Shown: piece by piece, positions 3,001 to 21,824 of the stretch | Layout of the letters: each line of letters opens with the position of its first letter | Position numbering within the stretch: the first letter of the stretch is position 1 | Origin: Candidatus Saccharimonadota bacterium | GTDB taxonomy: Bacteria; Patescibacteriota; Saccharimonadia; Saccharimonadales; UBA4665 | Assembly: GCA_016699955.1 (NCBI GenBank) | Contig: CP064993.1 | Location: 630,001 to 662,000 of the forward strand | Direction: 5' to 3' | Length of the DNA stretch: 32,000 nucleotides | Program-made: the position numbers and the translations under genes | Notes under the pieces: generated by a model | Database searches by the model: none | What the model was told of the DNA's origin: nothing | The model's input: only the letters and a program-made list of their open reading frames with translations

Positions 3001-3130
3001 TCCAAGGCTCTACCAAAGTAACTCCTCAAGCCTCGGCTAGCACCACACTACTGTGTACTAACGCCGGAGTCATCTCCACCTGTGATGCTGCAGTACTTGC
3101 CCCAACTGCTACTAACTTCATCCAGAACCA
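1..3130 (+). repeat. Copy A of a 3.13-kb dispersed direct repeat (partner 14194-17322); extends beyond the window edge
   Basis: By-eye base alignment: nt 1 corresponds to 14194 and nt 3130 to 17322. Only scattered substitutions and five 1-bp indels differ within the block. Similarity stops after ...ttcatccagaacca (3131 aaatgcc versus 17323 gacagcc). Confidence 0.9.
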
Positions 3131-6044
3131 AAATGCCGGGGCACAGGCTACCAGTAACTTCTGGATTAGTGGTACGGGTAGGGCAAACACTAGCTTCCTG
3201 ACCCCCACTCTTGACACCGCCACCGGTGTTGCCCTAAACATCGGCAATACCAATGCGACCAGCATTGTTATAGGTCAAGCGAGTACCACTGCCAGCGTCA
3301 AGAGCACCCTTTCACTCGATGGCACCGCTTTAAATAATGTACGGCTGTCTTTGTCTGGAACGCTCAGCGCTAGTAACACCTCAGCTATATATGGCATCCA
3401 GAATCAGATGAACTTCAGCCCAACCGGCGGCTCTCTAAGTAGCCTGTACGGCTTTATCAATCTTCCGACTATATCAGGCAGTAACTATGCAATCGGCGAC
3501 GTCTACGCCGCCTTTAACCGCATTGATACGACAGCCGGCTACACCGGTCAGATAACCAATGGGTATGGTCTGCGAATTGATGCCCCAAGTCTTGCCGGTA
3601 GTCCTGGTGCAGGCGTAGCCAAGATTTTAAACTACACAGGTATCTACGTAAATGGTACTAGTAATGGTGGCAACACAAGTAACACAATCAGTAACTACGG
3701 TATACGGCTTCCGGGCAGTTCTGCTACAGCTGGTGCTGGTGGTATACTCAACAACTACACTGCTCACATCACTGTTCCAACAGGCGGGGCCACAGGAACA
3801 ACCAGCAACTACGGCCTTTATTTGACAGGCGCTGGTGGTGCCGCAACGACAAACTACGCCATCTACAATAGTTCTACCGCCGCCAACTACCTCCAGGGCA
3901 ACACCAGTATTGGAACAGCCAGTAACCCAAATGGCTACGTCCTCAACGTCCAAGGCACAGTAGGCGCAAGCGGTGGGGCTATAAACCTAAACGTTAGTAG
4001 CAACTATGCAGTCAACATAGGCACTGGCACAACTAACGTAGCCGTGACCATTGGTAACACTGCCAACACAACAAACTTTGGCTCACGCACAATCAATATC
4101 GGTACGGCTGGTGCAACGAATACAGTTCAGGGGGCAGCACAAACGGCAGCCAATACGACTGGCGATCAGCTAACCATTAAGGGCAGTGCTGGTCTGGGGA
4201 GTGGTAACGGTGGTACCCTACTCCTGTCGGGTGGAGATGCTGGCGGTACCGGAAAGATGGGTCTTGTTAGCTTGAATCCAACTGCATTTGCAGCATCTTC
4301 TACGGTCACACTTTCGGCCACTAACTCTTTGAATACATTGCTTACAAACGGCACAAACAACTACGGAACAGTTCCAGTCAATGCCACTGGTACAGGCTAT
4401 GTATTGACGGTTGATTTGCCTACAGTGACAACTGTTGGTCGTATTTTGTACATCACCGCTGTCAATGGCAGCTCCGACTTTACGCTGTCGCTAGCGGGCA
4501 CCTCAGTTAGCATCAGCATGAAGGCGAATAGTACCGCGACTTTGGTGTACAACGGTACCGGCTGGACAGCAGCTGGTGCCAGTAGCTCAACCGACCTTCA
4601 GGCCGCTTACAACAATACCCTCACTAGCGCTGGTGGTGCAGAGCTGGTCTTGAATGCACCTGGCGGAGCTGCCGACGGTTTGACTATTCGTAATAACGGC
4701 ACGACACCGCTCTCTGGAGGCCTCCTAGAAGTCCAAACAGCTGTTGGTACCAACCTGTTCAGTGTTAATAGCTACGGTACCGAGCTGGCGAGCAACGGTG
4801 GTGCGGAAACGGCTGGAGGGTCAAGCATAACCTTCCCGGCAAGTACATGGTCGGCGCAGAGCACAGCAACGGTTAGCCGCACGGTGACCAGTGGTGAATA
4901 CCAGACGGGTCAGGCAGGTGTGAAAGTTGTAACGACCGGTATATCTCAAGGTGCCAAGAACCAGCTATCGGGTAATCCTGTTACTGGCTCTGTTACGTAT
5001 ACTGTCTCGTTCACTGCCGCTTCGAGTACGGCGGGTCAGAACACAACACCGATAGAGGTCATCTATTCTCCAGACAACGGCACGACTATGACGAACACGT
5101 GTCAAGGCTTTGGCGGTGGTTACACAACCTCACGGCCCATCTCAAACTACACGAGCTACAACTGGACGAAAGTTACCTGTACGGTAACCACCACTGCGAC
5201 CGCAGTGACCACACCACTACTCATAATCCGTCAGACAGATGCGACTTCGCGCACGTTTTACATAGACAACCTCAGTTTCATCCGCAATGACTCCACGACT
5301 CGCCCTGCAAACGTTCAAATCGGGGGTGGTAACACAGGTGGTCAAGTCACTCTCTTTACCTTTGACCGCTCGAGTACAGCCCCACTTGTCTCTGGAAGTG
5401 ATGACCGCTATCTGGGCTCAATGTACTACGACACAACCCTCGGAAACATTCAGTGTTACGAGGCTGACGGATGGGGCGCCTGCGGTAGCGCCCCAGACAA
5501 CATCATTACGCTTACACCGGAGTACTCAAACGCTGTACTTAGCGCTCCGGGTACCATGGGAGGAACGTTTACTGCGACTGGCGTAGGTACGCTGACGGCC
5601 GATTTCTGTTCGAACGAAAACACCGTCCTCCAAGTCAACACCGGCTTCTGCGCGAACCACGTATCTCGCAACTACTACCGCTGGACTTCACCTCAGGCAA
5701 CGGCACAAACCTACAGTATTTATGTCTCGTACAAATTGCCGAGCACCTTCAAAACGTTCTACGACGACAACACTATCAAGCTGACTGGTTTACGTGACCA
5801 CGCAACGAACTCGACTGCCGCTCTCAGTGTATTCAGAAGTACTGGTAGTGCTGTGACTCAGTGTGGGTCAACCACAACCGTGACGACAGCGACCAGTTCA
5901 TGGACAACAACTAGCTTGACGGGCAACGAAACAGGGTGTGGTTTTGCCGCTGGTGATGTTGTGCTGTTCAAAATAAATGTGACGGCACAGAGTAACGCCA
6001 ACGTGTACGTTGAAAACCTAGAGTTCAGGTATACCAATAAGTAA
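1..6044 (+). CDS. Giant fibre-like secreted/surface protein, 5'-truncated by the window edge (2013 codons in window; reading phase starts at nt 3). Contains a parallel beta-helix region, a 2 x 324-aa tandem repeat, a CBM4_9-like module and a beta-rich C-terminal tip.
   Basis: The frame is open from nt 3 to TAA 6042-6044; ORF-track entry 69..6044 is the same frame from an internal TTG. nt 1-3130 are ~99% identical to 14194-17322 of the downstream paralog, whose upstream part carries a signal peptide, so the true start lies left of the window. Degenerate ~22-aa repeats (VSNNTVMVNSAFGIRVSG, VNANTIAGNG, ITNNSLRENG, ITGNSIYDSAG) fit a right-handed parallel beta-helix of PbH1/NosD type. Composition is T/N/G/S/A-rich with very few charged residues. 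The pattern NGGAE..W...FYIDNLSFI at ~4740-5290 resembles CBM4_9. Confidence 0.85.
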   Translation, partial: TGTPGTAQTGHFNISGTGIAAILQGSTSVLTPILDTAAAGTLTIGGTNASSISLADDTVLAANKTITITGGDTTTRNGLTPTEGMVFYDTTTKQLLIYANGKWQADRETATKIVAPSTASQALKDAADYVATGSADQTIINTALTAAAGGKVVLLEGTFTTSDAISIPNNTTLAGNGRGTLVTFSNIATQNKNMITNTDTTNGEGVVVRDLRLDGNKAVNTSGTQHGIYMNNVGFGSSGAGILQGPTVINTWVNNFRSTGIYYYSSSNGTVANNNVLYNVGDGININGSNRVTVSNNTVMVNSAFGIRVSGSLAVTVNANTIAGNGLLAGTNTGGGVLFDGSSSNNAITNNSLRENGASSGTANSSIYIATASNNSITGNSIYDSAGTGQGIHIYDAASVSNYFADNTMVGTGATGIIDNGTTTIWGGQTNASGNFMIQPAGTIELMKNTNIAANQNITFAAGSGNFDQSASSGTFATGTGAVSLNGDTTVASGKNLTVTSGTTALTGTTNINTSGAAATSIGTGTGNNTVGNTTGTLGLTGSTVTVAGNTSINTTGTNTTTIGSVTAGAVSITSNAPSNFTTNTGALTLTSAAATTWSTTAGALTLQGAAGATIKSAAGTTSSDVTVSTGNASAGASGNITIDTGTYTSGTPTVNIGTTVAGAVTIGRAATTTTIQGSTKVTPQASASTTLLCTNAGVISTCDAAVLAPTATNFIQNQTASTQTAGFKIDGTGTAGTLVGTTAVQAPLFDTASAVALNIGTTNATQINLNKNVSIAANQNITFAAGSGNFDQSASSGTFATGTGAVSLNGDTTVASGKNLTVTSGTTALTGTTNINTSGAAATSIGTGTGNNTVGNTTGTLGLTGSTVTVAGNTSINTTGTNTTTIGSVTAGAVSITSNAPSNFTTNTGALTLTSAAATTWSTTAGALTLQGAAGATIKSAAGTTSSDVTVSTGNASAGASGNITIDTGTYTSGTPTVNIGTTVAGAVTIGRAATTTTIQGSTKVTPQASASTTLLCTNAGVISTCDAAVLAPTATNFIQNQNAGAQATSNFWISGTGRANTSFLTPTLDTATGVALNIGNTNATSIVIGQASTTASVKSTLSLDGTALNNVRLSLSGTLSASNTSAIYGIQNQMNFSPTGGSLSSLYGFINLPTISGSNYAIGDVYAAFNRIDTTAGYTGQITNGYGLRIDAPSLAGSPGAGVAKILNYTGIYVNGTSNGGNTSNTISNYGIRLPGSSATAGAGGILNNYTAHITVPTGGATGTTSNYGLYLTGAGGAATTNYAIYNSSTAANYLQGNTSIGTASNPNGYVLNVQGTVGASGGAINLNVSSNYAVNIGTGTTNVAVTIGNTANTTNFGSRTINIGTAGATNTVQGAAQTAANTTGDQLTIKGSAGLGSGNGGTLLLSGGDAGGTGKMGLVSLNPTAFAASSTVTLSATNSLNTLLTNGTNNYGTVPVNATGTGYVLTVDLPTVTTVGRILYITAVNGSSDFTLSLAGTSVSISMKANSTATLVYNGTGWTAAGASSSTDLQAAYNNTLTSAGGAELVLNAPGGAADGLTIRNNGTTPLSGGLLEVQTAVGTNLFSVNSYGTELASNGGAETAGGSSITFPASTWSAQSTATVSRTVTSGEYQTGQAGVKVVTTGISQGAKNQLSGNPVTGSVTYTVSFTAASSTAGQNTTPIEVIYSPDNGTTMTNTCQGFGGGYTTSRPISNYTSYNWTKVTCTVTTTATAVTTPLLIIRQTDATSRTFYIDNLSFIRNDSTTRPANVQIGGGNTGGQVTLFTFDRSSTAPLVSGSDDRYLGSMYYDTTLGNIQCYEADGWGACGSAPDNIITLTPEYSNAVLSAPGTMGGTFTATGVGTLTADFCSNENTVLQVNTGFCANHVSRNYYRWTSPQATAQTYSIYVSYKLPSTFKTFYDDNTIKLTGLRDHATNSTAALSVFRSTGSAVTQCGSTTTVTTATSSWTTTSLTGNETGCGFAAGDVVLFKINVTAQSNANVYVENLEFRYTNK
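1362..3305 (+). repeat. In-frame tandem duplication, 2 units of 972 bp (324 aa), inside fibre gene 1
   Basis: gctaaccagaacattacc recurs at 1362 and 2334, a period of exactly 972 bp. About 790 bp of each unit (1362-2152 versus 2334-3124) are nearly identical; I saw 2 substitutions. The last ~180 bp of the units are homologous but diverged (QTASTQTAGFKIDGTG... versus QNAGAQATSNFWISGTG...). Confidence 0.9.
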
Positions 6045-6600: not shown

Positions 6601-9600
6601 GTGGAAGACAGAAAAATCCAAGCAATGACGCATGGTTTGTCCGAATCTCAGGGAGGGGCGGCTAATGTTCCTCGTAAAACAGTTACACTGCGTTTGGGGC
6701 TTATGCCTCGTGGGATTATTCTGGTTGTTCGTGCTGCGTGGGCTAAGCTGCGGCGTGCAGTGAATAAGCTGGAAAAATACATTCTGCTTAGTTTGCCAAA
6801 ACCATTGGCACGAAAACTCTACTTTTTACGTCCAAAACGTCGAAAACATCCAGTGCTGGCACGGCTAGGCTGGGGTGCGATGGCGCTTCTGATGCTTTTT
6901 GCGGCAAATTCCCAACTGCTGTCGGTGCGACAAAAGGACATAATATACGCGCTTTCACCGCGAGCAGAAGCTTTGCTTGGCAAGGCAAACCAATCATACG
7001 AACAAAGTCTTCGTTTAGATTACAAACAAGGCAGCTATCTTTACAACGATGGATATCGCTCGAGCGCAGAAGTGATTTCTCAGGGTACTCCAAAATTTAG
7101 TGCCTCATTTAGTCTTGATCCAAAGCAAGGCGTCATGGTTACCGATCCTGCCACGGGTGCAAAACTGACGTTTGTGCCAGAGTTTGCACTGCATGAGCCC
7201 CGGCAATCACAAAATCGACTGATCTATCCTGTGGCGGGTAGTACTGCGCAAAAAGTGTATACGGCGCGAGCAGCAAGCATCAAAGAAGATATTATCTTAA
7301 ATCAATACAGTACGGACTCGATGGAATTTAAATACACACTTAAAACCGATACTGGTACAGAGGCGCGGATGGAATCAGACGGCTCGCTTGGCGTATACGG
7401 CGTAAACTCGGCATTGCTTGGGGCGGTTTCGACGGGATCTGAGTCGGATACAAAACTGCTTGAACAGGCGAGGGCAAATGGCGAAAAAAACCGCTTACTC
7501 TTCACTCTGCCCGCTCCTTACATACGGGAGTCGGGTAGAAAAACGAGTCAGGCAAAAGCTTGGTATAGCTTGAATAAAGACGTCCTTACGGTGCACGCAA
7601 CTAACTTACAATCTGCTAACTACCCTCTAACAATCGACCCTACTGTCTATATTGAAACTGCACGGAAGCTCATGAAAGGCAACAACGAAACAAATGTTGA
7701 CTTTGACGTCGATAACGAACTCATACAAAAAAGCCAGACTACCGGGGCTCGCATTGACTACTGGTCTGACACGACAGAAATGAGTAGCGGTGTTTGGGAT
7801 CAAGCGATGGCTTCGGCTGGGGGTTTTGTGTACCGCTCGGGTGGTCGTATAGATCCGACCATGCCGTATGTGGCTAGCCAGCAGGCGACCACACAGGCAA
7901 CAAACAGCCTAAGTTTTACTATGAATATGCCCACGCTGCGTCCAGCAGGTGATTTGTACGTTGCGCTAATTGCAAAAGACGGCGATAACAGAGTATCACC
8001 ACCTGCTGGATGGACGGAGTATGCCGATTTGCAGCAACACGCAGCGTACTACAAAGAAGGAACAGACCAGGGCGGGGGGAATGAAGCCGCGACATACCAG
8101 TGGACGGTTGCAACAACGGCAGAGCAATGGACGGGAATTATTCTGCGGATAAAAAACTTCAATGCCGGCTCACCAGTTAGCGGTACAGCAGGCACTACCA
8201 GCGCAGCCTCTGGAATCCCACAGTTTCCGGCTACAACACCTGGACATGATGCAACTTTGGTAATACGGGCAACAGGCTTTGACGAAGATCAACCCAGCGA
8301 AGCAACATGGTTACCGCTGGGCCATACCCGCGTTTATTCTGGAACAAGTAGCGACACAGACGCCGTCAACAGCGCTGCCCTTGTCGCGACCACTCTAGAT
8401 GTTCCGCCGCTGGCGAGCAATAGCACCGCCGCCGCATCTTTGATAAATGACGGGCTAATCAATGATTCTTACGGTGCATCTTCTATTGCTATTCGGCCGG
8501 CGACTGTCACAGCAGGGTACCAGAACATGCTCGAATGGGCCCAGGTTAACCCCTCTGCGGGAACAATCGATAGCCCCAATCCGGGAGCCGGTACGTGTAG
8601 TGGCTGGTGCACGCAGGCTGTCTATAATTTGCCGGCCAATCGAGTAGGCATGTCGATGTATGCGTACAATGGTTTTCTGTACGCCATTGGCGGGACTACC
8701 GACGGTACCGCTGCAAACGCACAGAACACGGTGTGGGTTGCCAAACTAGGTGCTAACGGCGAGCCGCAGTTGTGGCACCCATCTGGCGGCACGCCAACCT
8801 ATTGGTACGCCTCTACAAACACGCTTCCCGTCGCACTCAGTTATACAGCCATTAGCATTGCCAACAACAGATTATATTTGCTTGGCGGCAGGAACACAGG
8901 TGGCACCAGCGTTGACACGGTTCGGGTTGCCGACGTACTGGCAACTGGTGATATTGGGCCCTGGTCGACAACAGGTATGCAAAACTTGCCAGATGTCCGC
9001 CACGGTCACAGCGTGCAGTTTTATAATGACGTTATGTACCTTATTGGCGGGAATAGCAGTGGCACACTCCGCAACACTGTGTACTTTAGTAAAATGAACG
9101 CCGACGGAACGATGAATTCATGGTCTCAAACAAGCACATTCACGACCGCACGTGCCAGTATGGGTGGCTCCATGACGACTGTTTGGGGTGGGTATGTGTA
9201 TATGGGTGGGGGATGCTCGGGCTTAACTGGTGCCTATTGCAGTACCATTGCAAGCGATGTCCAGCTAGCGAGTATTAATGCCGATGGTTCACTCGCCGAC
9301 TGGAACACTATACTGAATCTCAGTAACCAGCGCATTGGGTACAGTCTTGTGGCGTGGCAAAACGGGCTGTACCGTTTTGGTGGCTGTAACCGGCAAAATA
9401 CGACCACCGGTGTGTGCTATGCGGTACATAGAGATGTTGAATATGGAATAGTCAACCCAGACGGTGATGCGAGCACCGTAAGTAATTCTGAACCAGCCAA
9501 CACGGGCAACTGTGTTACGCCTAACTTTACCGACTGTGACCTTCCTGGTGGTGGTGATGGTGCAGAGCAGGGCGGGCAAATGAGCAACATGGTAGTGATA

Positions 9601-12264
9601 AATAACGGATATATTTATGTGATTGGGGGCTGTACGAGCGTTGCCGCTAACAATGTTTGTGAAACTGCCGGAACGGCGGCCTCAAGCGGCAACGTGCTGT
9701 ACGCTGCCATTGACTCAAGCGGTAACATGACCCGGGTTGGGACATGCGGTGGTACATTTGTGACAAACAGCCTGTGGTGTGTTGACAGTACCAACCGCGT
9801 CAATGGTACCACAGGTATTTCGGCGGGAAGCGCAACCGTGTATAACAACGTAATTTACGTGATAGGCGGGACATCTGGCTCTACGTGGAGCAGTACGGTT
9901 TATAGAGTATCGCTTAACGCAAATGGCACGCTCACCGGCGCTTGGACGACACAAACTTTTGCAAAACTGGCACTTGGTACGTCCAGGGGATACGCCTTCT
10001 CATTTACGCGCAGTAATCCGAATAATGCTGCGACGTACCCCGGAAATCTATATGTGCTGGGCGGCTGCTACATTGCAGGTGGTGGTACCGGGGATGATGG
10101 CATTGGCTGTAGCACCTATTTCACTAAGGTGTACAAGTGCAATATTATGACGAGCGGTGCGCTAGAGGAAGCAAACGCCAATGACTGCGACACAGCAGGA
10201 CAGGTTCAGATAGACGCAGACAATATCAACACCGGCTCTCAAGGACTGGGTCTAATGGCGGGTACGGTGTACGCTAACCGAGTCTATCTGGTTGGGGGTG
10301 CTTGCACAGCGGTTACGTCATACGTCAACCCCACGGATCCGTGTGCGTCAGACACATCGCCTGTTATCAACAACAACGCTCAAAGAAAAGAAACCATCTA
10401 CGCAAAAATCAATGACAGCAACAATATTGTCGATAATGACACAGGGCTATCGGGTGGCTCCTGGAAGTTTACGACTGGTCTCATGAATCCAGTGCGTCGA
10501 CGCGCGGTGGCGTTTGGTTACAATGGATACATATATTCACTTGCAGGATATAGCGGTACGGCGTCTCTCCAGGACCTTCTATTTGCCAAAATTGATGTCA
10601 CTACCGGTGATATGGGGTCGTTTGATAGCTCTGGTGTGGTAGTCACACCGCGCTGGGATTTACGTGCTATTGTTGGAAATGGCTATGTCTATGCAATAGG
10701 GGGCTGTAGTGTCGGTGCCGCACCAGATGGGTGCACATCTATGCAACCAGAAATCCAGACTTTCCAGCTCTACAACAACGACAGTGGAGCGCCAGTAAAC
10801 TACACGGCTCTTTCTGACGACACCTTTGCGGCTGATACCGATAGGTGGGGGGCAAGTGCGGCAGTCTTGAACGGTTATGTATATGTCGCCGGCGGCTGTA
10901 TAAGTGCAACAGACTGTACAAATGCAACGAACAACGTCCAGTATGCTCCCATTAGTGCAAGTGACGGCACCGTTGGCACGTGGGCGAGTGCAACGAACGG
11001 CCTGCCAGCAGACCGAACATGGGGTCAGCTGGAGGTTGCTGGCGGTAACCTGTATTACTTGGGTGGGCAAGACGACACTGCCACAAACGAACAGTCAGCG
11101 GTGTACTATGCCGGTACGTTTACGCTCGGGGATATTACGGCTGCGTGGGGAACCGCTTCTGGTGGTATAGGTGACACCGCGTCACAGGCTGCTCAGCCCC
11201 TGACACGCTTTGGTGCGACCGTCTGGAACGACCGTATTTATGTTGTCGCCGGACTTGATGGCAGCGCGGCAAACACAAACGCGGTATATATAAGTCCGCA
11301 GCTCGCCAGCGGGGGAAATATTGCCGCAGATAGTTGGGTGCAAGATGCTGATGTACCAGATGTCGTGCGCCGTGGTAATACTGTCGTTGCCTATGCCAAC
11401 AACCTCTACAGCGTAGGGGGCAATAATGGTACCCAATATTTCAATGACTCACAATTTACCCAAATCAACAGCGACGGCACTATTGATGCCTGGACGTTTA
11501 GTACGAGTCTACCTGGTGCAATTAGTGAGGCAGAGGGTTTTGCGGCGAACGGCTACCTGTATTTAGTAGCCGGACGTTCAGCCGCAAGTACGTGCGCACC
11601 GAACACACTGGTTACTCCTATAAGCGCAAATACAACAATTGCGAGCGGTAACAACCCAACCGGAATAGGTGAATGGTACGAGACTAATAAACGTTATACG
11701 GGCGACCGGTATGGGTCTGCTGTGGCTTATGTTGGAGGTAAGATTGTAGTTATGGGTGGTGGCTGCACCGCACCGCTTTCCACCGGAAGGCACTTCTATA
11801 CGTCGGTAAAATCGCAGCCGCAAGTTGCCAAGTATTCCCGTATGATAGATACTGATACTGATGTATTTCCTACAAAATGGCTGGTGAATGGACTCGATAA
11901 CTCCACCGGTGCACGCTGGTATATGCGCTTTCGAAGCATGACGGATATAGACGGAGACGCAACTGATTGTGTAGTAAATATGACAACGTGGGGTCAGGAA
12001 ACAAACTTTGGTGTTGTCACGCTAGGCAACCCAGAAACCTTTGTAGCTCGTGATGGTAGCGGCACAAACACAAACTGTGCTCGGTACTATTACTTCTCCT
12101 TAAATATCGATAGTTCTCAGGCGTTTGGTTACCCAGAAGACGTCAACCGCGGGCCAACCATCGCTGACTTGAGCTTATTTTTTACCGCAGATCCAAGCAA
12201 GCGCCTGCTGCACGGCAAAACTTTTACTGGTGGCGAACAACAACCGCTCGATACGCCGTTCTAA
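6601..12264 (+). CDS. Giant membrane-anchored Kelch-like beta-propeller protein (1887 aa, about 17-18 blades, probably three propellers)
   Basis: Single 5.66-kb ORF. A basic N-terminus is followed by a hydrophobic helix (LARLGWGAMALLMLFAA) that looks like a signal anchor. Every ~55-65 aa there is a hydrophobic-Y-hydrophobic-x-G-G strand followed by A-x-I-x-x-(D/N)-G-x-x-x-x-W. Examples: FLYAIGG, RLYLLGG, VMYLIGG, YVYMGGG, LYRFGG, YIYVIGG, VIYVIGG, LYVLGG, VYLVGG, YIYSLAG, YVYAIGG, YVYVAGG, LYYLGG, IYVVAG, LYSVGG, YLYLVAG, IVVMGG. The start is uncertain (GTG 6601 or ATG 6625). Confidence 0.85.
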   Translation: MEDRKIQAMTHGLSESQGGAANVPRKTVTLRLGLMPRGIILVVRAAWAKLRRAVNKLEKYILLSLPKPLARKLYFLRPKRRKHPVLARLGWGAMALLMLFAANSQLLSVRQKDIIYALSPRAEALLGKANQSYEQSLRLDYKQGSYLYNDGYRSSAEVISQGTPKFSASFSLDPKQGVMVTDPATGAKLTFVPEFALHEPRQSQNRLIYPVAGSTAQKVYTARAASIKEDIILNQYSTDSMEFKYTLKTDTGTEARMESDGSLGVYGVNSALLGAVSTGSESDTKLLEQARANGEKNRLLFTLPAPYIRESGRKTSQAKAWYSLNKDVLTVHATNLQSANYPLTIDPTVYIETARKLMKGNNETNVDFDVDNELIQKSQTTGARIDYWSDTTEMSSGVWDQAMASAGGFVYRSGGRIDPTMPYVASQQATTQATNSLSFTMNMPTLRPAGDLYVALIAKDGDNRVSPPAGWTEYADLQQHAAYYKEGTDQGGGNEAATYQWTVATTAEQWTGIILRIKNFNAGSPVSGTAGTTSAASGIPQFPATTPGHDATLVIRATGFDEDQPSEATWLPLGHTRVYSGTSSDTDAVNSAALVATTLDVPPLASNSTAAASLINDGLINDSYGASSIAIRPATVTAGYQNMLEWAQVNPSAGTIDSPNPGAGTCSGWCTQAVYNLPANRVGMSMYAYNGFLYAIGGTTDGTAANAQNTVWVAKLGANGEPQLWHPSGGTPTYWYASTNTLPVALSYTAISIANNRLYLLGGRNTGGTSVDTVRVADVLATGDIGPWSTTGMQNLPDVRHGHSVQFYNDVMYLIGGNSSGTLRNTVYFSKMNADGTMNSWSQTSTFTTARASMGGSMTTVWGGYVYMGGGCSGLTGAYCSTIASDVQLASINADGSLADWNTILNLSNQRIGYSLVAWQNGLYRFGGCNRQNTTTGVCYAVHRDVEYGIVNPDGDASTVSNSEPANTGNCVTPNFTDCDLPGGGDGAEQGGQMSNMVVINNGYIYVIGGCTSVAANNVCETAGTAASSGNVLYAAIDSSGNMTRVGTCGGTFVTNSLWCVDSTNRVNGTTGISAGSATVYNNVIYVIGGTSGSTWSSTVYRVSLNANGTLTGAWTTQTFAKLALGTSRGYAFSFTRSNPNNAATYPGNLYVLGGCYIAGGGTGDDGIGCSTYFTKVYKCNIMTSGALEEANANDCDTAGQVQIDADNINTGSQGLGLMAGTVYANRVYLVGGACTAVTSYVNPTDPCASDTSPVINNNAQRKETIYAKINDSNNIVDNDTGLSGGSWKFTTGLMNPVRRRAVAFGYNGYIYSLAGYSGTASLQDLLFAKIDVTTGDMGSFDSSGVVVTPRWDLRAIVGNGYVYAIGGCSVGAAPDGCTSMQPEIQTFQLYNNDSGAPVNYTALSDDTFAADTDRWGASAAVLNGYVYVAGGCISATDCTNATNNVQYAPISASDGTVGTWASATNGLPADRTWGQLEVAGGNLYYLGGQDDTATNEQSAVYYAGTFTLGDITAAWGTASGGIGDTASQAAQPLTRFGATVWNDRIYVVAGLDGSAANTNAVYISPQLASGGNIAADSWVQDADVPDVVRRGNTVVAYANNLYSVGGNNGTQYFNDSQFTQINSDGTIDAWTFSTSLPGAISEAEGFAANGYLYLVAGRSAASTCAPNTLVTPISANTTIASGNNPTGIGEWYETNKRYTGDRYGSAVAYVGGKIVVMGGGCTAPLSTGRHFYTSVKSQPQVAKYSRMIDTDTDVFPTKWLVNGLDNSTGARWYMRFRSMTDIDGDATDCVVNMTTWGQETNFGVVTLGNPETFVARDGSGTNTNCARYYYFSLNIDSSQAFGYPEDVNRGPTIADLSLFFTADPSKRLLHGKTFTGGEQQPLDTPF

Positions 12265-13065: not shown

Positions 13066-13452
13066 CGAAGGCTAATGGGGGTATTTGGTAAGTGTAGAGC
13101 GTAGGCTTAGTGACAGTATTTCTTGTGCAAATTGGGTCAAATCCAGAACAAAATAACGGAGTAATATAAACAACAAAAATTAAGCATATTGTTCAGGTAT
13201 TTCCTACAACACTAGCAGTACATTTATCTGTAAAATCTTATGCTCAGAGTATTATTTCACGTAGTATTAATTACTACACGATACTATATTATGTCTACTT
13301 ATGTGCACGAGTAGTCTGAAAGATTGCAAAGAAACTGCGAAAAGGGGAAAATAAGTGAAGTACTGAACCAAACACAAAAAATTGTTCAATACAAAAACTA
13401 AAACAAAAAAATATGCCAAATCACATACCGAACTCCGTACTGTTTGTGCGTA

Positions 13453-13481
13453 CCCTCTGGCTCTCCGCCAAGAGGGGTTTT
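13453..13481 (+). promoter_or_regulatory. Terminator/attenuator-like hairpin in the leader of fibre gene 2
   Basis: ccctctgg (13453-13460) pairs with ccaagaggg (13468-13476, one bulged A) and is followed by gttttgtgg. It lies ~70 nt upstream of the likely start ATG 13551, inside a ~480-bp AT-rich gap. Confidence 0.3.
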
Positions 13482-13550
13482 GTGGTATTTGGCCGCCGTA
13501 AACACTTGTATGCTCTGAAAAGCTGGTCACATTCGTGCATTCTTTGGCTC

Positions 13551-14885
13551 ATGCAACGATTTTCTTTTCGAGTATCGAAGCAAGGTGTACAGGTAGCCCT
13601 CGCTGTTTCTTTGCTCCTCCTACCCCTATTTTTCCTCACGCGTGGGTACACAGGCGTAGAACACGCCTATGCCGCCACTTCCGACAACCTGAACTTCCAA
13701 GCTCGCCTAGAGAACTCTGCCGGAGCCATCGCTGCCGATGGCTTCTACAACCTCCAGTTCAAGCTCTACGACGCTGCCAGTGGTGGTACCCTCCTCTGGA
13801 CTGAAACCTACGACTACAACGGTGGTACCCCTGACCGTCGTGTTAGGGTAGCCAACGGCTACGTCACCGTCAACCTAGGCTCTATCACCAGCTTCCCTGG
13901 CAGCATGCCCTGGGATCAGCAGCTTTACCTCACCATGAACGTTGGCGGTACTGGCACCTCAGCCTCATGGGACGGAGAAATGAACCCACGCCTCAAACTC
14001 ACTGCCGTACCCTATGCCTTCAACGCCAAGACAGCCAGTCAGCTTGTTACCACCAGCGGTGTTTTCATCTCCACCCTGGCTATCCAATCCCCGACAGGTG
14101 GAAACCAAACCCTCCACCTCCAAAATCAGGGAGCAGCCGGAACCTACAACCTCCTAACCGCACCATCGCGCAGTGATGGCTACATCAAGCTGCAGACTGG
14201 GACACCAGGAACCGCTCAGACCGGGCACTTCAACATCTCTGGCACAGGTATAGCTGCCATCTTGCGGGGCTCAACCAGCGTCCTCACCCCCATCCTAGAC
14301 ACTGCCGCCGCTGGCACCCTAACCATTGGCGGTACCAATGCTTCTTCTATTTCTCTGGCAGATGACACCGTCCTGGCTGCCAACAAGACCATCACCATCA
14401 CAGGCGGCGATACAACTACTCGCAACGGGCTGACTCCAACCGAAGGTATGGTATTCTACGACACTACCACCAAACAACTTCTAATCTACGCCAATGGCAA
14501 GTGGCAGGCTGACAGAGAAACGGCTACAAAGATCGTAGCCCCGAGTACTGCTAGCCAAGCCCTGAAAGATGCTGCCGACTATGTCGCAACAGGTAGCGCC
14601 GATCAAACCATCATTAACACCGCTCTTACCGCTGCCGCTGGTGGCAAAGTTGTTCTACTCGAAGGAACATTTACTACCAGTGATGCTATCTCCATACCAA
14701 ACAACACGACACTAGCTGGTAACGGTCGTGGCACCTTAGTTACCTTTAGTAACATTGCAACTCAGAACAAGAACATGATCACCAACACAGATACTACCAA
14801 TGGTGAAGGCGTGGTTGTCCGTGATCTCCGCCTCGATGGTAACAAAGCCGTCAACACCAGTGGTACTCAGCATGGTATAATATGA
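13551..14885 (+). pseudogene. Fibre gene 2 fragment A (signal peptide, N-terminal module, first part of beta-helix A)
   Basis: ORF-track entry 13413..14885. It ends at a TGA created by loss of one base in the tatatat run present in gene 1 (ggtatatatatgaac versus ggtataatatgaac). Confidence 0.6.
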
Positions 14886-14919
14886 ACAACGTCGGTTTGG
14901 CTCAAGCGGTGCCGGCATA

Positions 14920-15648
14920 TTGCAAGGACCAACCGTCATTAACACTTGGGTCAACAACTTCCGTTCTACTGGTATCTACTACTACAGCAGCTCAAACGGT
15001 ACCGTTGCCAACAACAATGTCCTTTACAACGTCGGTGACGGTATCAACATCAACGGGAGTAACCGCGTTACCGTCAGTAACAACACCGTCATGGTGAACT
15101 CAGCCTTCGGTATCCGTGTCAGTGGGTCACTGGCTGTTACCGTGAATGCCAACACTATTGCCGGCAATGGCCTTCTGGCTGGCACGAACACCGGTGGTGG
15201 TGTCTTGTTTGACGGCAGCAGCTCCAACAACGCCATTACCAACAACAGCCTCCGTGAGAACGGTGCCAGCAGTGGTACGGCCAACAGTAGTATTTACATT
15301 GCCACTGCTAGCAATAACAGTATTACTGGTAACTCTATCTACGACTCGGCTGGTACCGGTCAGGGTATCCACATCTACGACGCTGCCTCAGTCTCTAACT
15401 ACTTTGCCGACAACACCATGGTTGGTACTGGTGCTACTGGCATCATAGACAACGGCACTACTACCATATGGGGTGGTCAAACCAATGCCAGCGGCAACTT
15501 CATGATACAGCCAGCTGGAACTATTGAGCTGATGAAGAACACTAACATTGCCGCTAACCAGAACATTACCTTTGCAGCTGGGTCTGGTAACTTCGACCAA
15601 TCTGCTAGTAGTGGTACTTTGCTACTGGCACGGGTGCCGTCAGCCTGA
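14920..15648 (+). pseudogene. Fibre gene 2 fragment B (rest of beta-helix A)
   Basis: ORF-track entry 14920..15648. Its protein is identical to gene 1 residues QGPTVINTWVNN...FDQSASSGT until the CC>C deletion at ~15617. Confidence 0.6.
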
Positions 15649-17498
15649 ACGGAGATACAACTGTAGCTAGTGGTAAGAACCTGACTGTCACCAGTGGCAC
15701 CACAGCACTAACCGGCACTACCAACATAAACACCTCGGGTGCCGCTGCCACCAGCATCGGTACTGGCACTGGCAATAACCAGCGTTGGTAACACCACAGG
15801 TACTCTCGGCCTGACTGGTAGCACAGTAACAGTTGCTGGTAATACTAGTATTAATACAACAGGTACTAACACAACCACCATAGGCTCTGTCACTGCTGGT
15901 GCAGTTAGTATTACATCCAATGCCGCTAGCAACTTCACCACCAACACAGGTGCCCTCACCCTCACCAGTGCCGCTGCTACCACCTGGAGCACAACAGCCG
16001 GTGCTCTAACCCTGCAAGGTGCAGCTGGTGCGACCATTAAGTCTGCTGCTGGTACGACATCTAGTGATGTAACTGTCTCCACTGGCAATGCCAGCGCTGG
16101 CGCCAGTGGTAACATCACCATAGATACTGGTACCTACACCAGCGGTACCTCCGACTGTGAACATCGGTACTACAGTTGCCGGCGCAGTCACCATCGGCCG
16201 AGCTGCTACTACCACTACTATCCAAGGCTCTACCAAAGTAACTCCTCAAGCCTCGGCTAGCACCACACTACTGTGTACTAACGCCGGAGTCATCTCCACC
16301 TGTGATGCTGCAGTACTTGCCCCAACTGCTACTAACTTCATCCAGAACCAGACAGCCTCTACCCAAACAGCTGGCTTTAAGATAGATGGCACCGGTACAG
16401 CCGGCACATTAGTCGGTACAACAGCTGTCCAAGCACCGCTCTTTGATACTGCTTCGGCCGTAGCCCTAAACATCGGCACTACCAATGCCACCCAGATTAA
16501 TCTCAACAAGAATGTATCCATTGCTGCTAACCAGAACATTACCTTTGCAGCTGGGACTGGTAGCTTTGACCAGTCTGCTAGTAGTGGTACCTTTGCTACT
16601 GGCACGGGTGCCGTCAGCCTGAACGGAGATACAACTGTAGCTAGTGGTAAGAACCTGACTGTCACCAGTGGCACCACAGCACTAACCGGCACTACCAACA
16701 TAAACACTTCGGGTGCTGCTGTCACCAGCATCGGTACTGGCACTGGTAATAACAGTGTTGGTAACACCACAGGTACTCTCGGCCTGACTGGTAGTACAGT
16801 AACAGTTGCTGGTAATACTAGTATTAATACAACAGGTACTAACACAACCACCATAGGCTCTGTCACTGCTGGTGCAGTTAGTATTACATCCAATGCCGCT
16901 AGCAACTTCACCACCAACACAGGTGCCCTGACCCTCACCAGCGCCGCTGCTACCACCTGGAGCACAACAGCCGGTGCCCTAACCCTGCAAGGTGCAGCTG
17001 GTGCGACCATTAAGTCTGCTGCTGGTACGACATCTAGTGATGTAACTGTCTCCACTGGCAATGCCAGCGCTGGCGCCAGTGGTAACATCACCATAGATAC
17101 TGGTACCTACACCAGCGGTACTCCGACTGTGAACATCGGTACTACAGTTGCCGGCGCAGTCACCATCGGCCGAGCTGCTACTACCACTACTATCCAAGGT
17201 TCTACCAAAGTAACTCCTCAAGCCTCGGCTAGCACCACACTGCTGTGTACTAACGCCGGAGTCATATCCACCTGTGATGCTGCAGTACTTACTCCAACTG
17301 CTACTAACTTCATCCAGAACCAGACAGCCTCTACCCAAACAGCTGGCTTTAAGATAGATGGCACCGGTACAGCCGGCACCTTAGTCGGTACAACAGCTGT
17401 CCAAGCACCACTCTTTGATACCGCTTCGGCCATAGCCCTAAACATCGGCACTACCAATGCGACTAGCATAAACATCAACCAGAACACCGTCCTCGCTG
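15553..17498 (+). repeat. In-frame tandem duplication (2 units, 972 bp nominal) inside fibre gene 2
   Basis: gctaaccagaacattacc occurs at 15553 and 16526. The period is 973 bp because of a net +1 indel. Unit 2 carries several substitutions relative to unit 1 (GTGSFDQ versus GSGNFDQ, AAVTSIG versus AAATSIG, NNSVGN versus NNTVGN). Confidence 0.85.
15739..16260 (+). pseudogene. Fibre gene 2 fragment C (tandem repeat unit 1, middle part)
   Basis: ORF-track entry 15739..16260. The homologous reading frame is valid only between the +1 indels at ~15782 and ~16148. Confidence 0.55.
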
Positions 17499-17845
17499 CC
17501 GATAAATCTATCGTCATCACAGGAGGAGCCACCCGTCCAGCTAGTCCAGTAGAGGGCATGGTGTTCTATGATACTGCTACGAAACAACTTCTAACCTACG
17601 CTAATGGCAAGTGGCAAGCTGATGGCAAAGAAGCCATCATCGTCGCTGCTAGTGACTCCAGTGACGCCGACAAGGCTTCAGCTGACTACGTCGGAGATGG
17701 CAACACTGCTGCCGCCGCTGACGGTGACCAAGTCCAGATAAACGCTGCTCTGACCGCTGCCGACCCAGCTGGATCAGGCGAAGACTGGCAAGGTCGTCCT
17801 GCTCGCTGGTACCTACACCCTAGACGCAAGCGTATCTATTCCTAA
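16157..17845 (+). pseudogene. Fibre gene 2 fragment D (end of unit 1, unit 2, start of the second head/beta-helix module)
   Basis: ORF-track entry 16157..17845. Homology to the ...GKVVLL.G....IPNNTTLAG module is lost after ~17783 and is recovered in another frame. Confidence 0.6.
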
Positions 17846-18004
17846 TAACACACCCTAGCCGGTGTCGGTAACGCCACGAGCATAACTATCCCGAACTCTC
17901 TGAACGTCAACTTTAGCGCCATCGTCAACACCGACCAAACTACCGGCACCGGCGTTACTATCCAAGACCTAAGACTCGAGGGCAACAAAGCTAACCAATC
18001 CGGT

Positions 18005-20395
18005 GTGATCGCTATGGTAGGTGTTGACTTCAACAACATGGGCGGTGGCTCCGGCTCCGGTGCTCGCCAGGGTGCCAAGATACTGCATGTCCGGTCGAAT
18101 AGTTGGTACTACAATGCAAGTAGTAACTGTCAGGGCGGTCATGGCATTTGCTTGCGCAACAGCTCCAACAACACACTTACAGGCAACACTGTACAGGAAA
18201 ATGGTGGCCCCGGCATCAACTTGGAAAGTTCCCACAACAACACCCTTACCGGCAACACCGCGCAGGGCAATAACGGAGGCATTGGTCTCAATAATGCCGA
18301 CAACAATACTGTCACCGGTAATACTACGCAGGGGAATAGCGGCAGAGGTATCGTCAGCAGCTTTAGCTCCAGCAATACCTTCTCTGGCAACACCATGCAG
18401 GGGAATAGTAACGGCGGTATCTCTCTCTCCCTCGACTCTAACAGCACGGTATCCGGCAACACTATCCACGACAACGGTGGAGCGCTCACTAACAATGGCA
18501 TATCTATGGGCACTTCCGATACTAACACCATCATCGGAAACACTATCACGGATACCGGCTGCAGTACCAACTGCTATGCCATTGACATTAGCGACTCAGG
18601 TTCGGACAACAACTATCTCGCCGGGAACGTCTTCAGCACTACTTCTGGCACTGCCATCATCAACGACATTGGTACCGGCACGATCTACGCCGGTCAAGCC
18701 ATGACAGCCGGTGGTCTTGACATCCGCTTCAAACAAGCCGCCTCCGCTTCTGCCTTCCAAATCCAGAGCGGTGCAATAGACTACCTTACCGCCGACACAA
18801 GTGGTAACAAGATCCAAATAGGTTCCGCCACCACTGACGCCAATGCCATTCTCTTCGGCCTAGACAGCTACAACAACGCAACTGACCCCACTGGCTACAA
18901 CGGAGCCATGTACTACAACAGTAATACCAGTAAGTTCCGGTGTTATGAAGGCGGTATCTGGACAAACTGTGCCGGTGCTGCCGCTAGTGCCATCCAGAAC
19001 CAGTATGCTGGGACTCAGACTGCAAACTTTAACATACAAAGCGCCGCAGCCGCCCAGGTAGTCGCTGTTATCCAAGGCGCCGCTAGTCAAAGCGTGGATA
19101 TTCTCCAGGTAAAAGTTTCGGGCGGTAACATACCGTTTCGTGTCAGTTCTACTGGTGACGTGACTATGGCTAGAAACACACTGTATATGAATACGACCAC
19201 AACCAATGCACAGCGTATATACATTTCTGGCAACATAAATTCCGGCGCTGTTTCGCAGTACGGTATACAAAATGAGCCAATCTTCCTACCAACGGCTGGA
19301 GCTGCGGGTGGGAATATATTTGGTTTTACTAACACGGCAATGCTTGCAACCAGTAGCGTAAATATTGGTCAGATATTTGGATCTGTAACGGGCGTTTCAA
19401 CCAACGCAGATTACACAGGAACCCTTACGGCTGCACACGGCTTAAATATTCAAAATCCATCTATGTCCGGCAGTAAAGCAGCGAACTACTACGGTATTTC
19501 TATAAATGGTGTAACAAACAACGGTGGCAATACGTCGGGCACAATTAAGAACAACCAGTTATTCATAGGAAACACGACGGTAGGTGCAGGGGCAGGCGGC
19601 ATACTTTACAACGTTGGAGCGCGTATTGTAATCCCTTCTGGGTCTGGAGGCACCACTCATAACTCCGGTCTAGTTATAGCCGATAGCACCGCTTCTGTCT
19701 CTGGCACATGGTCCCTGTACAACAGTAGCGCCCAAGTAAGTTACTTTGCTAGTAACGTAACCATTGGTACTTTGCTAACAGCCGACGTTACGGCAGGTAA
19801 CGTTCAGATAGGATCTGCTACAACTGATGCTACTGCAAAACAGTTCGTGTTAGACAGCTACAACAACTCAACTGACCCAACAGGAGTTACGGGCGGCATG
19901 TACTACAACAGTGCACTTGCTGTGTTCCGCCGCTATGAAAACGGGGCTTGGAAGGACTGTTTAACGCGCCACCTCGTGACACTTGGTTCAGATATAACCA
20001 ACAACAACGCAACCGCCAACACCATTGCTAATGTTACAGGTCTCAGTTTTGCGGTTACATCTGGTAGAACGTATCGCTTCCATGCCAATATTGTCTATAC
20101 GGCTGCTGCTACCACTACAGGCTCTCGCTGGAGCGTCAATGGGCCTGCGACGTCGCTACTTAGCTACGCCACGCGCTACGGAACTACTGCCGCGACGGAG
20201 GCCTTTACCTATGCATCGGCGTACGACAACCCGGCGGCAAGCAACACCGATTCGCCAAGTACTGCGGGCAACACTGCAATTATAGAAGGAATTGTCACTC
20301 CTTCGGCCGGTGGAACTCTGACTGTCAGATTTGCCTCAGAGGTGTCAAGTTCGGCAATTGTAGCAAAAGCCGGCAGTACTATTGAGTGGTGGTAG
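18005..20395 (+). pseudogene. Fibre gene 2 fragment E (beta-helix B plus paralog-specific C-terminal cassette); the frame is open from 17858
   Basis: Contains ~22-aa beta-helix repeats (NNTLTGNTVQENGGPGINLESSH, NNTLTGNTAQGNNGGIGLNNAD, NNTVTGNTTQGNSGRGIV, NTFSGNTMQGNSNGGISL, STVSGNTIHDNGG). Two GxMYYNS...Y/CYE.G.W..C motifs follow, then a C-terminal beta-rich domain ending ...AKAGSTIEWW. Confidence 0.65.
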
Positions 20396-20923: not shown

Positions 20924-21036
20924 GCTTCAATAGTACCGAAAACACGTGGTTTTGGGAAACTATGTACAGAACATGGCACCGGCGAGGTGTTAGCCCGCAG
21001 CTATGTGCTCCGCATAGCCCCTTTTAACAGAGTAGC

Positions 21037-21045
21037 TGTGGATAA
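21037..21045 (-). promoter_or_regulatory. Perfect DnaA-box 9-mer (TGTGGATAA, the complement of TTATCCACA)
   Basis: Exact match seen in the sequence. Weaker relatives are TGTGCACAA (~21077) and TTATCCAGC (21572-21580). An A-rich tract lies at 21158-21200 and parAB is adjacent. A single perfect box is expected ~0.25 times by chance in 32 kb. Confidence 0.25.
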
Positions 21046-21091
21046 CTGGGGTAAATTAACTACTTTGAGTAAAAAATGTGCACAAAAAGTA

Positions 21092-21120
21092 TTGCAATTG
21101 TTTTAACACTAGCGCATACT
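21092..21120 (+). promoter_or_regulatory. Candidate sigma70-type promoter (TTGCAA-N17-CATACT)
   Basis: The -35 element ttgcaa is at 21092-21097, followed by a 17-nt spacer and the -10 element catact at 21115-21120. It would drive a ~100-nt transcript ending at the 21193-21229 terminator. Confidence 0.25.
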
Positions 21121-21126
21121 TGGACA

Positions 21127-21229
21127 CAGATTTCCCGCGTACTTTGCGGAGGGATCAAAAACTTCAAACCAAAAAAAACAAAAACGTATTCCTAAAAAGC
21201 AGGCACTCTCGCAAGGCCTGCTTTTTTTA
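21127..21229 (+). ncRNA. Candidate small RNA (~100 nt): 5' hairpin, CA-rich unstructured linker, intrinsic terminator
   Basis: A cccgc/gcgg(a)g hairpin lies at ~21134-21150. The linker is caaaaacttcaaaccaaaaaaaacaaaaacgtattcc, followed by a strong terminator. The flanking genes are divergent, so neither needs this terminator. I recognised no family; alternatively the terminator serves a minus-strand RNA. Confidence 0.25.
21193..21229. terminator. Strong bidirectional rho-independent terminator in a divergent intergenic region
   Basis: agcaggc (21198-21204) pairs with gcctgct (21216-21222). The stem is flanked by an A5 run 5' and a T8 run 3', so it reads as stem plus U-tract on both strands. 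Confidence 0.7.
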
Positions 21230-21824
21230 TTGCCCGCAAAAATGATTGCTGCCCGCTCGGAAGAAATGTTGGTGCCACACAGAGTTACGTGACCCGTACG
21301 GGCGAAGTAGCATAATTTGGGGGTGCCGGCATGTTTATTGGCTGGCTGTATTTCGGGGCAGGGGGGGTAATTAACCCGAACTTGGCTTAAACGCCGCGTT
21401 TTCGGCAACGGGAGTTAATCCAGCTGTAAAAAATCCTCGTCCCTGAAAACTTCGCGCCCCCGCTCGACTAACCGCTGAAAGTGCTAAAGGTGGCGTTTAC
21501 ATCGAAAGGAGCCAAACCACGCAGGATAGCTTAGAGCCTGGTATTAGTGCACTAAGCGCCATGTCGCACAATTATCCAGCAACACGTTCAACAGTAGAAT
21601 ATTAACGAAGAAGCATTGACAGTGCAGGTTAGTAGAACGGCCACTCGCGGCCTTTATTGCAAGTAGCAGGATACGCAAAAAGGGAGTAGCACAGTAGTAC
21701 TAGCAGTATGATACCATAGGATATTTTTTGTAAATGTCAGGCAGATCGACTGGAGCGATAGGCGTGAACGTTTACGCCAGGGCGGCAATCTGGTAGGCTT
21801 ATAGATAGATGAGGAATGTTTGAA

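Follow-up and report, generated by a model that had tools for sequence, protein, structure and literature searches.

Two paralogous genes for giant surface proteins lie in the 32,000-nucleotide stretch of contig CP064993.1 analyzed here (hereafter, the window), which belongs to a Saccharimonadales chromosome (TM7, candidate phyla radiation (CPR)). One of them, gene 1, is intact, while the other, gene 2, is broken in the deposited sequence by seven single-base insertions or deletions (indels). Is gene 2 a gene that has just been lost, a silent donor of sequence, a switch, or a gene that was merely sequenced badly? We consider it probable that the seven frameshifts are residual Nanopore consensus errors concentrated in one repeat copy and not mutations, and the lesions are most likely not a real biological feature. 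The initial annotation of this locus had offered four explanations (consensus error through cross-mapping of reads between the repeat copies, very recent inactivation, a non-expressed donor cassette, and slippage-based switching); the first is the best supported of the four, both by the pipeline that produced the assembly and by a simulation of read placement.

Seven single-base lesions in gene 2

The proteins encoded by gene 1 and gene 2 share a collar motif (EGMVFYDT..KQLL.YANGKWQ, preceding each beta-helix module), a right-handed parallel beta-helix, and two units of 972 bp, and they differ in their C-termini. The features that bear on the lesions are as follows.

1-6044, forward strand: intact paralogue, gene 1; open over 2014 codons, with the 5' end beyond the start of the window
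1-3130, forward strand: repeat copy A, part of gene 1; error-free counterpart of 14194-17322 (blastn)
13413-20395, forward strand: gene 2 as repaired; 2327 codons, with an ATG at 13413
14194-17322, forward strand: repeat copy B, in gene 2; carries lesions 1-5
14879-14880, forward strand: lesion 1, -1; one T lost in a TATATAT run, GGTATATATATG becoming GGTATAATATG, which makes a TGA at 14883-14885
14896-14898, forward strand: lesion 2, -1; T4 shortened to T3
15522-17468, forward strand: the two tandem 972-bp (324-aa) units of gene 2
15616-15617, forward strand: lesion 3, -1; CC reduced to C, GGTACCTTTG becoming GGTACTTTG; private among the four unit copies
15779-15783, forward strand: lesion 4, +1; one C too many at 15779, together with a private T>C at 15783, a compound change within 5 nt; AATAACACTGTT or AATAACAGTGTT becoming AATAACCAGCGTT, with AGC versus ACT at 15782-15783
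16148, forward strand: lesion 5, +1 (C); GGTACTCCG becoming GGTACCTCCG
17780-17789, forward strand: lesion 6, +1, shifting frame 2 to frame 0 (...AGSG / KTGKVVLLAGTY...); the sequence here is unique within the window
17852-17853, forward strand: lesion 7, -1, probably AA>A in ACAACC (...IPNNT/TLAG...); frame 0 to frame 2
17854-20395, forward strand: 3' part of gene 2 without lesions, encoding the second beta-helix module and the unique C-terminus (Pfam Beta_helix, 2.6e-31)

By blastn, 1-3130 and 14194-17322 are 98.8% identical over 3132 columns, with 33 substitutions and exactly five single-base gaps, every one of them a defect of the gene 2 copy. In a four-copy alignment of the 972-bp unit, lesions 3-5 are private to unit 1 of gene 2, and the other three copies agree. 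Lesions 6 and 7, which are 72 bp apart, fall in a region that is 67% identical to module 1, the longest shared k-mer being 14 nt. These two are confirmed because consecutive residues of two unrelated homologues align in different frames: residues 205-329 of homologue P0007 end at 17782 and residues 330-350 start at 17790, while residues 3-35 of homologue P0010 end at 17852 and residues 36-180 start at 17852. The seven single-base indels described in the initial annotation are thus all present, between 14879 and 17853, five by alignment and two by the frames of homologues. The first of them had been placed in a (TA)n run; one base is indeed lost there, but the loss is of a single T and not the slip of a repeat unit.

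As assembled, translation of gene 2 ends at the TGA of lesion 1, leaving a first fragment of 490 aa, and the gene is divided into open reading frames (ORFs) at 13413-14885, 14920-15648, 15739-16260, 16157-17845, and 18005-20395. The last of these is open and encodes 796 aa, so that the final 2.5 kb is intact, as had been stated. The segments between the indels had also been described as open, and undoing the seven lesions does yield a single, clean ORF of 2327 codons with no other stop, no nonsense substitution, and no larger deletion. The lesions are of both signs, with a net of -1, and stops occur in every shifted segment. They lie in runs of 1-4 nt, whereas the longest homopolymers in gene 2, two 5-mers, are both unaffected.

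The seven lesions in 2975 bp (about 1 per 425 bp) are clustered far more tightly than expected by chance. Seven uniformly placed events would fall within 2975 bp or less of the 28.4 kb of coding sequence with P = 8e-6, and the clustering holds inside gene 2 alone (P = 0.027), where the lesions occupy 43% of the gene. The 1.5 kb at its 5' end and the 2.5 kb at its 3' end are lesion-free. About 21 kb of other coding sequence in the window, including gene 1, the neighboring Kelch gene, and parA, is likewise free of lesions, which bears out the earlier claim that the damage is confined to one paralogue.

Probable consensus errors and the placement of reads

CP064993 is Hirt_18-Q3-R61-65_MAXAC.330_cln, a circular Saccharimonadales metagenome-assembled genome (MAG) of 1,211,496 bp assigned to g__GCA-2746885 (PMC8012365 Suppl. 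Data 3), with 9.17x Illumina and 18.9x Nanopore coverage (PMC8012365; Singleton et al. 2021). It was assembled with CANU from R9.4.1 reads and polished with Racon, twice with medaka, and with one Illumina round of Racon, for which the Illumina reads were placed by minimap2 at one location each (PMC8012365). The source is, in other words, noisy long reads with limited short-read polishing, and the lesions have the character of residual errors from such a source, being single-base indels with few accompanying substitutions in an otherwise intact frame. When polishing assigns one location per read, reads go to the clean instance of a repeat and an error in the other copy is never covered (PMC8812927). 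The residual Oxford Nanopore errors illustrated for Polypolish (Wick & Holt 2022, PMC8812927, Fig 1A) resemble the state of gene 2 in that they are frameshifting single-base indels in one repeat instance with an error-free twin and clean unique surroundings; the pipeline applied here, minimap2 followed by Racon, also placed each read once. Gene 2 departs from this pattern in that two, possibly three, of its seven lesions are uniquely mappable, in that all of the repeat-borne ones are in a single copy, and in that most lie in runs of 1-4 nt and not in long homopolymers.

To follow read placement at each site, error-free 150-nt reads were simulated from repaired gene 2 and aligned with short-read-like scoring. 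At sites 1, 2, 3, and 5, 14 of 14 simulated reads per site scored higher on another copy than on gene 2 as assembled (300 versus 268-286). Those from site 1 scored 300 on gene 1 and 268-284 on gene 2; those from sites 2 and 3 also preferred gene 1, and those from site 5 preferred either unit 2 of gene 2 or gene 1. Reads from site 4 deserted gene 2 only if the adjacent private T>C belongs to the error. Sites 1, 2, 3, and 5, and conditionally site 4, could therefore remain unfixed because short reads would map to the error-free copy. Simulated reads from sites 6 and 7 mapped to gene 2, where no error-free twin exists. The cross-mapping proposed in the initial annotation could thus account for four sites and conditionally for a fifth, but does not extend to the two that lie in unique sequence.

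The most likely course of events is that the gene 2 copy held raw consensus indels while its twin was clean; short reads would then align to the clean twin, no reads would remain over the gene 2 error, and the error would survive polishing. In the Racon and medaka rounds, ambiguous long reads may likewise have gone to a single copy and starved the other, and such starvation could leave one pristine and one poor copy. Sites 6 and 7 may represent one patch where the thin (9x) Illumina coverage failed; one leftover unpolished patch per roughly 30 kb is plausible at that depth.

The spectrum of changes points in the same direction. Between 14194 and 16500, there are five indels versus about three copy-specific substitutions (our own count from the alignments), and the first 1.59 kb of the repeat contains three indels and two substitutions. 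If indels are assumed to make up about 1 in 10 spontaneous events, the probability of at least five indels among eight events is 4e-4. Gene 1 and repaired gene 2 differ by 22 synonymous and 9 conservative nonsynonymous codons, giving a ratio of nonsynonymous to synonymous substitution rates (dN/dS) of about 0.16. Because the differences are mostly synonymous and include no nonsense change, the repaired frame appears to be precisely the one in which gene 2 has been translated during its evolution. On the consensus-error reading, the raw reads should carry an unbroken frame.

The closest syntenic relative found in a scan of genome collections is CP064992, a circular MAG of the same genus from the Hirtshals plant. 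It derives from the same sample as CP064993, with 6x Illumina coverage, and was assembled by Unicycler with --no_pilon (PMC8012365). Its gene order is that of the window (gene 1, Kelch, the gene for a 261-aa protein (p261), gene 2, the gene for a 159-aa protein (p159), parA, parB, lepB, lytR), and the matching stretches of CP064992.1 are the following.

L016, 1166-13518 and 15149-20589: syntenic stretches
L002, 1436-7367, 10001-15214, and 17473-19079: syntenic stretches
L002, 10001-12640: join of the N-terminus to module 2 in the gene 2 orthologue

Frame changes occur in the gene 1, Kelch, and gene 2 orthologues of CP064992.1 and also in parA (residues ~205-209) and parB (~230-244). Their load is very roughly 1 per 1-1.5 kb, as estimated from the frames of high-scoring segment pairs, and CP064992.1 looks like a largely unpolished long-read consensus. 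The lesion density in gene 2 is of the same order as this load. The comparison of orthologous loci suggested by the initial annotation was informative in showing a sister locus that is frameshift-ridden even in parA and parB, but it did not supply a sibling strain for a lesion-by-lesion check. At the DNA level, parA and parB of the two genomes are too divergent for placing indels and typing their error contexts. An exact-protein look-up of the 261-aa upstream gene and of an 837-aa gene 2 fragment returned no sibling contigs; the sole database copy of this 3' fragment (P0001, 837 aa) is on one contig of 1,211,496 bp. When the C-terminus of gene 2 and its repaired N-terminal 1034 aa were used as protein queries, no relative above about 72% local identity was found that would allow such a comparison. 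In metagenome-wide scans, neither the unique 26-mer adjoining site 7 (exact DNA match) nor a gapped pattern for the intact and lesioned forms of sites 1-2 gave a hit (0 hits each); none of these look-ups, searches, and scans turned up an independent assembly of the species.

Several observations weigh against consensus error as the whole explanation. For sites 6 and 7, and also for site 4 should AGC be genuine, gene 2 is the unique mapping target of short reads. Within the window, cross-mapping was rejected as the cause of sites 6 and 7, the region being unique; the diversion of reads to a repeat twin does not cover them, and a local gap in Illumina coverage would be needed. A symmetric diversion also predicts errors in gene 1 and in unit 2 of gene 2, yet gene 2 carries all five of the repeat-borne lesions, in its module 1 or unit 1, a distribution expected by chance in roughly a few per cent of cases. 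Because of the lesions in unique sequence and the restriction of all lesions to one copy, we still allow a real, very young pseudogene a minor but appreciable share of the probability. At the sites in question, the assembled and repaired forms can be told apart by k-mers unique to gene 2:

site 4: AATAACCAGCGTTGG as assembled versus AATAACAGCGTTGG, or AATAACAGTGTTGG, AATAACACTGTTGG, as repaired
site 6: GGATCAGGCGAAGACTGG as assembled versus GGATCAGGCAAGACTGG, or another in-frame form, as repaired
site 7: AATAACACACCCTAGCC as assembled versus AATAACACAACCCTAGCC as repaired

Sequence shared by the paralogues and biological alternatives

Gene 1 consists of a parallel beta-helix module, two Thr/Gly/Ala-rich units of 324 aa, and its own C-terminal region; its units start at 1332 and 2304, one 972-bp period apart (1332-3275). 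Repaired gene 2 consists of an N-terminal hydrophobic segment, beta-helix module 1, two 972-bp units, beta-helix module 2, and a unique C-terminus. The four unit copies, all Thr/Gly/Ala-rich, are 92-100% identical. Variants at 15915, 15925, 16104, and 16110 are common to units 1 and 2 of gene 2 and absent from gene 1. A false duplication, in which mis-assembly produced a second copy of gene 1, was considered and ruled out, since the gene 2 units share paralogue-specific variants that gene 1 lacks. Unit variants are also shared across the two genes as well as within them, and the pattern indicates ongoing concerted evolution among the four units.

In the gene 2 orthologue of CP064992, the N-terminus (aa 9-364) joins directly to module 2 (aa 1358-1805), with neither module 1 nor the two 972-bp units between them. 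The extra 3.1 kb of gene 2, comprising module 1 and the two-unit block, may have been acquired recently from gene 1 in this lineage or lost from the sister lineage, and the 98.8% identity to gene 1 suggests a recent gene 1-to-gene 2 transfer or conversion. Two 78-nt collar repeats (14435-14512 and 17545-17622, 82% identical) flank this extra segment.

The strongest of the alternatives, although unlikely, is that gene 2 is a real and very recent pseudogene, in which a 3.1-kb transfer or conversion from gene 1 was followed by inactivation of the chimeric gene through seven frameshifts, leaving the 490-aa N-terminal fragment. The lesions are, after all, present in the deposited sequence and all in one gene; at two or three of them, short-read polishing ought to have succeeded, all five of the repeat-borne ones are in one copy, and the lesion stretch roughly coincides with a seemingly recently acquired segment that is absent from the sister orthologue. 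Recent pseudogenes of reduced or host-dependent bacterial genomes are similarly conserved ORFs broken by frameshifts, and the nearby intact paralogue could make gene 2 redundant. Such pseudogenes would be recognized by a dN/dS near 1, nonsense changes, and lesions spread over the gene, and gene 2 exhibits none of these, although such marks would be missing from a pseudogene that is only a few mutations old. Its indels equal or exceed the copy-specific substitutions, opposite to natural decay (under the 1-in-10 assumption); it has acquired neither a nonsense substitution nor a larger deletion; and its lesions are clustered, while neutral decay should affect the whole length. Its low dN/dS in the repaired frame is a further point. 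Only one of the seven lesions is in a run of at least 4 nt, though slippage favors the longest runs. In addition, the C-terminus is conserved, at 73-78% amino-acid identity to the sister species (L002 13797-15214 of CP064992), and the assembly is of a type known for leaving such lesions. Very recent inactivation, as initially proposed, is thus disfavored by the ratio of indels to substitutions, by clustering, and by purifying selection, but keeps the modest probability given above. If the lesions are real, gene 2 would be a very young pseudogene with an unusual, indel-only spectrum beside concerted evolution of adhesin-like paralogues, which would be of modest interest.

An association of the lesions with recombination is much less probable. 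Error-prone repair synthesis can raise frameshift rates, and the clustered single-base indels could have been made by such synthesis during conversion from gene 1 to gene 2. The lesion island (14879-17853) overlaps the converted tract (14194-17322), and its spectrum, rich in indels and poor in substitutions, is unlike ordinary decay. The island nevertheless runs 530 bp past the part copied from gene 1, nothing independently indicates such a process, and nanopore consensus errors give the same spectrum, which the sister assembly exhibits genome-wide; we regard a frameshift burst of this kind as highly improbable. The broader picture to which it could lead, a freshly dead but still convertible gene 2 beside an expressed adhesin-like gene of an epibiotic CPR bacterium, reached via a recombination-linked indel burst, seems to us only slightly less doubtful.

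Even less likely is that gene 2 serves, without being expressed, as a donor cassette from which gene 1 is converted, comparable to Neisseria pilS, Borrelia vls, or Mycoplasma genitalium MgPa. As in those systems, a surface gene lies near a paralogue that is non-translatable as assembled, and the two are joined by a high-identity tract with signs of conversion: here, tandem paralogues with a 3.1-kb near-identical tract, different C-termini, and concerted evolution among four 972-bp units. Silent cassettes characteristically lack their own start, N-terminus, and promoter, occur in several copies, and carry diversifying, mostly nonsynonymous variation. In contrast, gene 2 is full-length: it has its own ATG and a hydrophobic N-terminal segment, followed by AYA-A, that is read as a signal or anchor, and a spacer of 348 bp lies upstream. 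It occurs once and not in an array, and its differences from gene 1 are mostly synonymous and not diversifying. In CP064992, its orthologue at the same position in the conserved order from gene 1 to parA is also a stand-alone gene. Furthermore, its homologues in eight Illumina MAG loci examined, including tandem ones on L009 and L010, include long open frames of 1,590-2,740 codons, which also counts in favor of consensus error. The cassette proposed in the initial annotation is not supported, in view of the start codon, the hydrophobic N-terminus, the sister orthologue, and the dN/dS of gene 2.

Phase variation by slipped-strand mispairing, or programmed ribosomal frameshifting, is the least credible reading of all: although two lesions touch short repeats (the TA run and T4), as the proposal of slippage switching had pointed out, gene 2 has neither the long homopolymer or simple repeat nor the single reversible change of a contingency locus, its two longest runs are intact 5-mers, the TA run lost one base and not a repeat unit, and no single reversible event would restore the frame across seven lesions with a net of -1.

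Protein family and genomic neighborhood

If the lesions are consensus errors, gene 2 is an ordinary, intact member of the giant beta-helix surface proteins of Saccharimonadales, and it should be treated as an intact protein of ~2327 aa, not as a pseudogene or cassette. A search with the repaired N-terminal 1034 aa returned 391 homologues at E<=1e-20 (best E=6e-203). Among the matches listed, the named homologues are mostly from Saccharimonadales or Saccharibacteria, and the homologues of gene 1 are Saccharimonadales beta-helix/NosD proteins. Hundreds of such proteins, 900-1800 aa or longer and often encoded in tandem, are 35-72% identical to gene 1 and repaired gene 2, with which they have both the collar motif and the beta-helix module in common. 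The Pfam families Beta_helix (PF13229) and NosD (PF05048) match aa 428-617 of repaired gene 2 and also the 796-aa fragment, that is, both modules. With its putative signal or anchor, collar, Pfam module, and homology, repaired gene 2 belongs to this family, from which it differs in having two beta-helix modules, due to the gene 1-like insert absent from the sister orthologue; once repaired, it is otherwise unexceptional. A second, collar-like motif, G.MYY(N/D)....F(R/Q).YE.G.W..C, occurs twice in the C-terminal region of gene 2 (18815-18922 and 19805-19912) and once in that of gene 1; it can be likened to EGMVFYDT..KQLL.YANGKWQ and corresponds to no Pfam family.

Consensus error at this locus would also illustrate how hybrid-polished nanopore MAGs leave islands of frameshifts in one copy of a repeat, and such islands can mimic pseudogenization, phase variation, or antigenic-variation cassettes. 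CP064992 in particular is flagged here as frameshift-ridden, including in parA and parB.

The genes of the window are arranged in the following order: gene 1, Kelch (1887 aa), the 261-aa protein, gene 2, the 159-aa protein, parA, parB, lepB, a LytR-family gene, htrA, prmC, prfA, and rpmE. ParA, ParB, LepB, LytR, HtrA, PrmC, PrfA, and L31 have near end-to-end matches to their family profiles. The Kelch protein (6601-12264), one unbroken ORF of 1887 aa located between the two paralogues, matches several Pfam Kelch families and has a basic and hydrophobic N-terminal region; its position is also kept in CP064992.

Upstream of parA, ~890 bp (20924-21815) contain no convincing ORF, Rfam family, or tRNA. 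This stretch includes one perfect DnaA-box 9-mer (21037-21045), a motif that is not enriched in the window, and scans of the window for Rfam families, tRNAs, and DnaA boxes yielded nothing relevant. Across most of both paralogues (1-6000 and 14000-19000), the GC skew has strongly negative values (-0.11 to -0.20), and in the rest of the window it is mostly positive. We attribute the negative skew to Thr/Ala/Gly-rich codon usage (ACN/GCN) and not to the replication strand.

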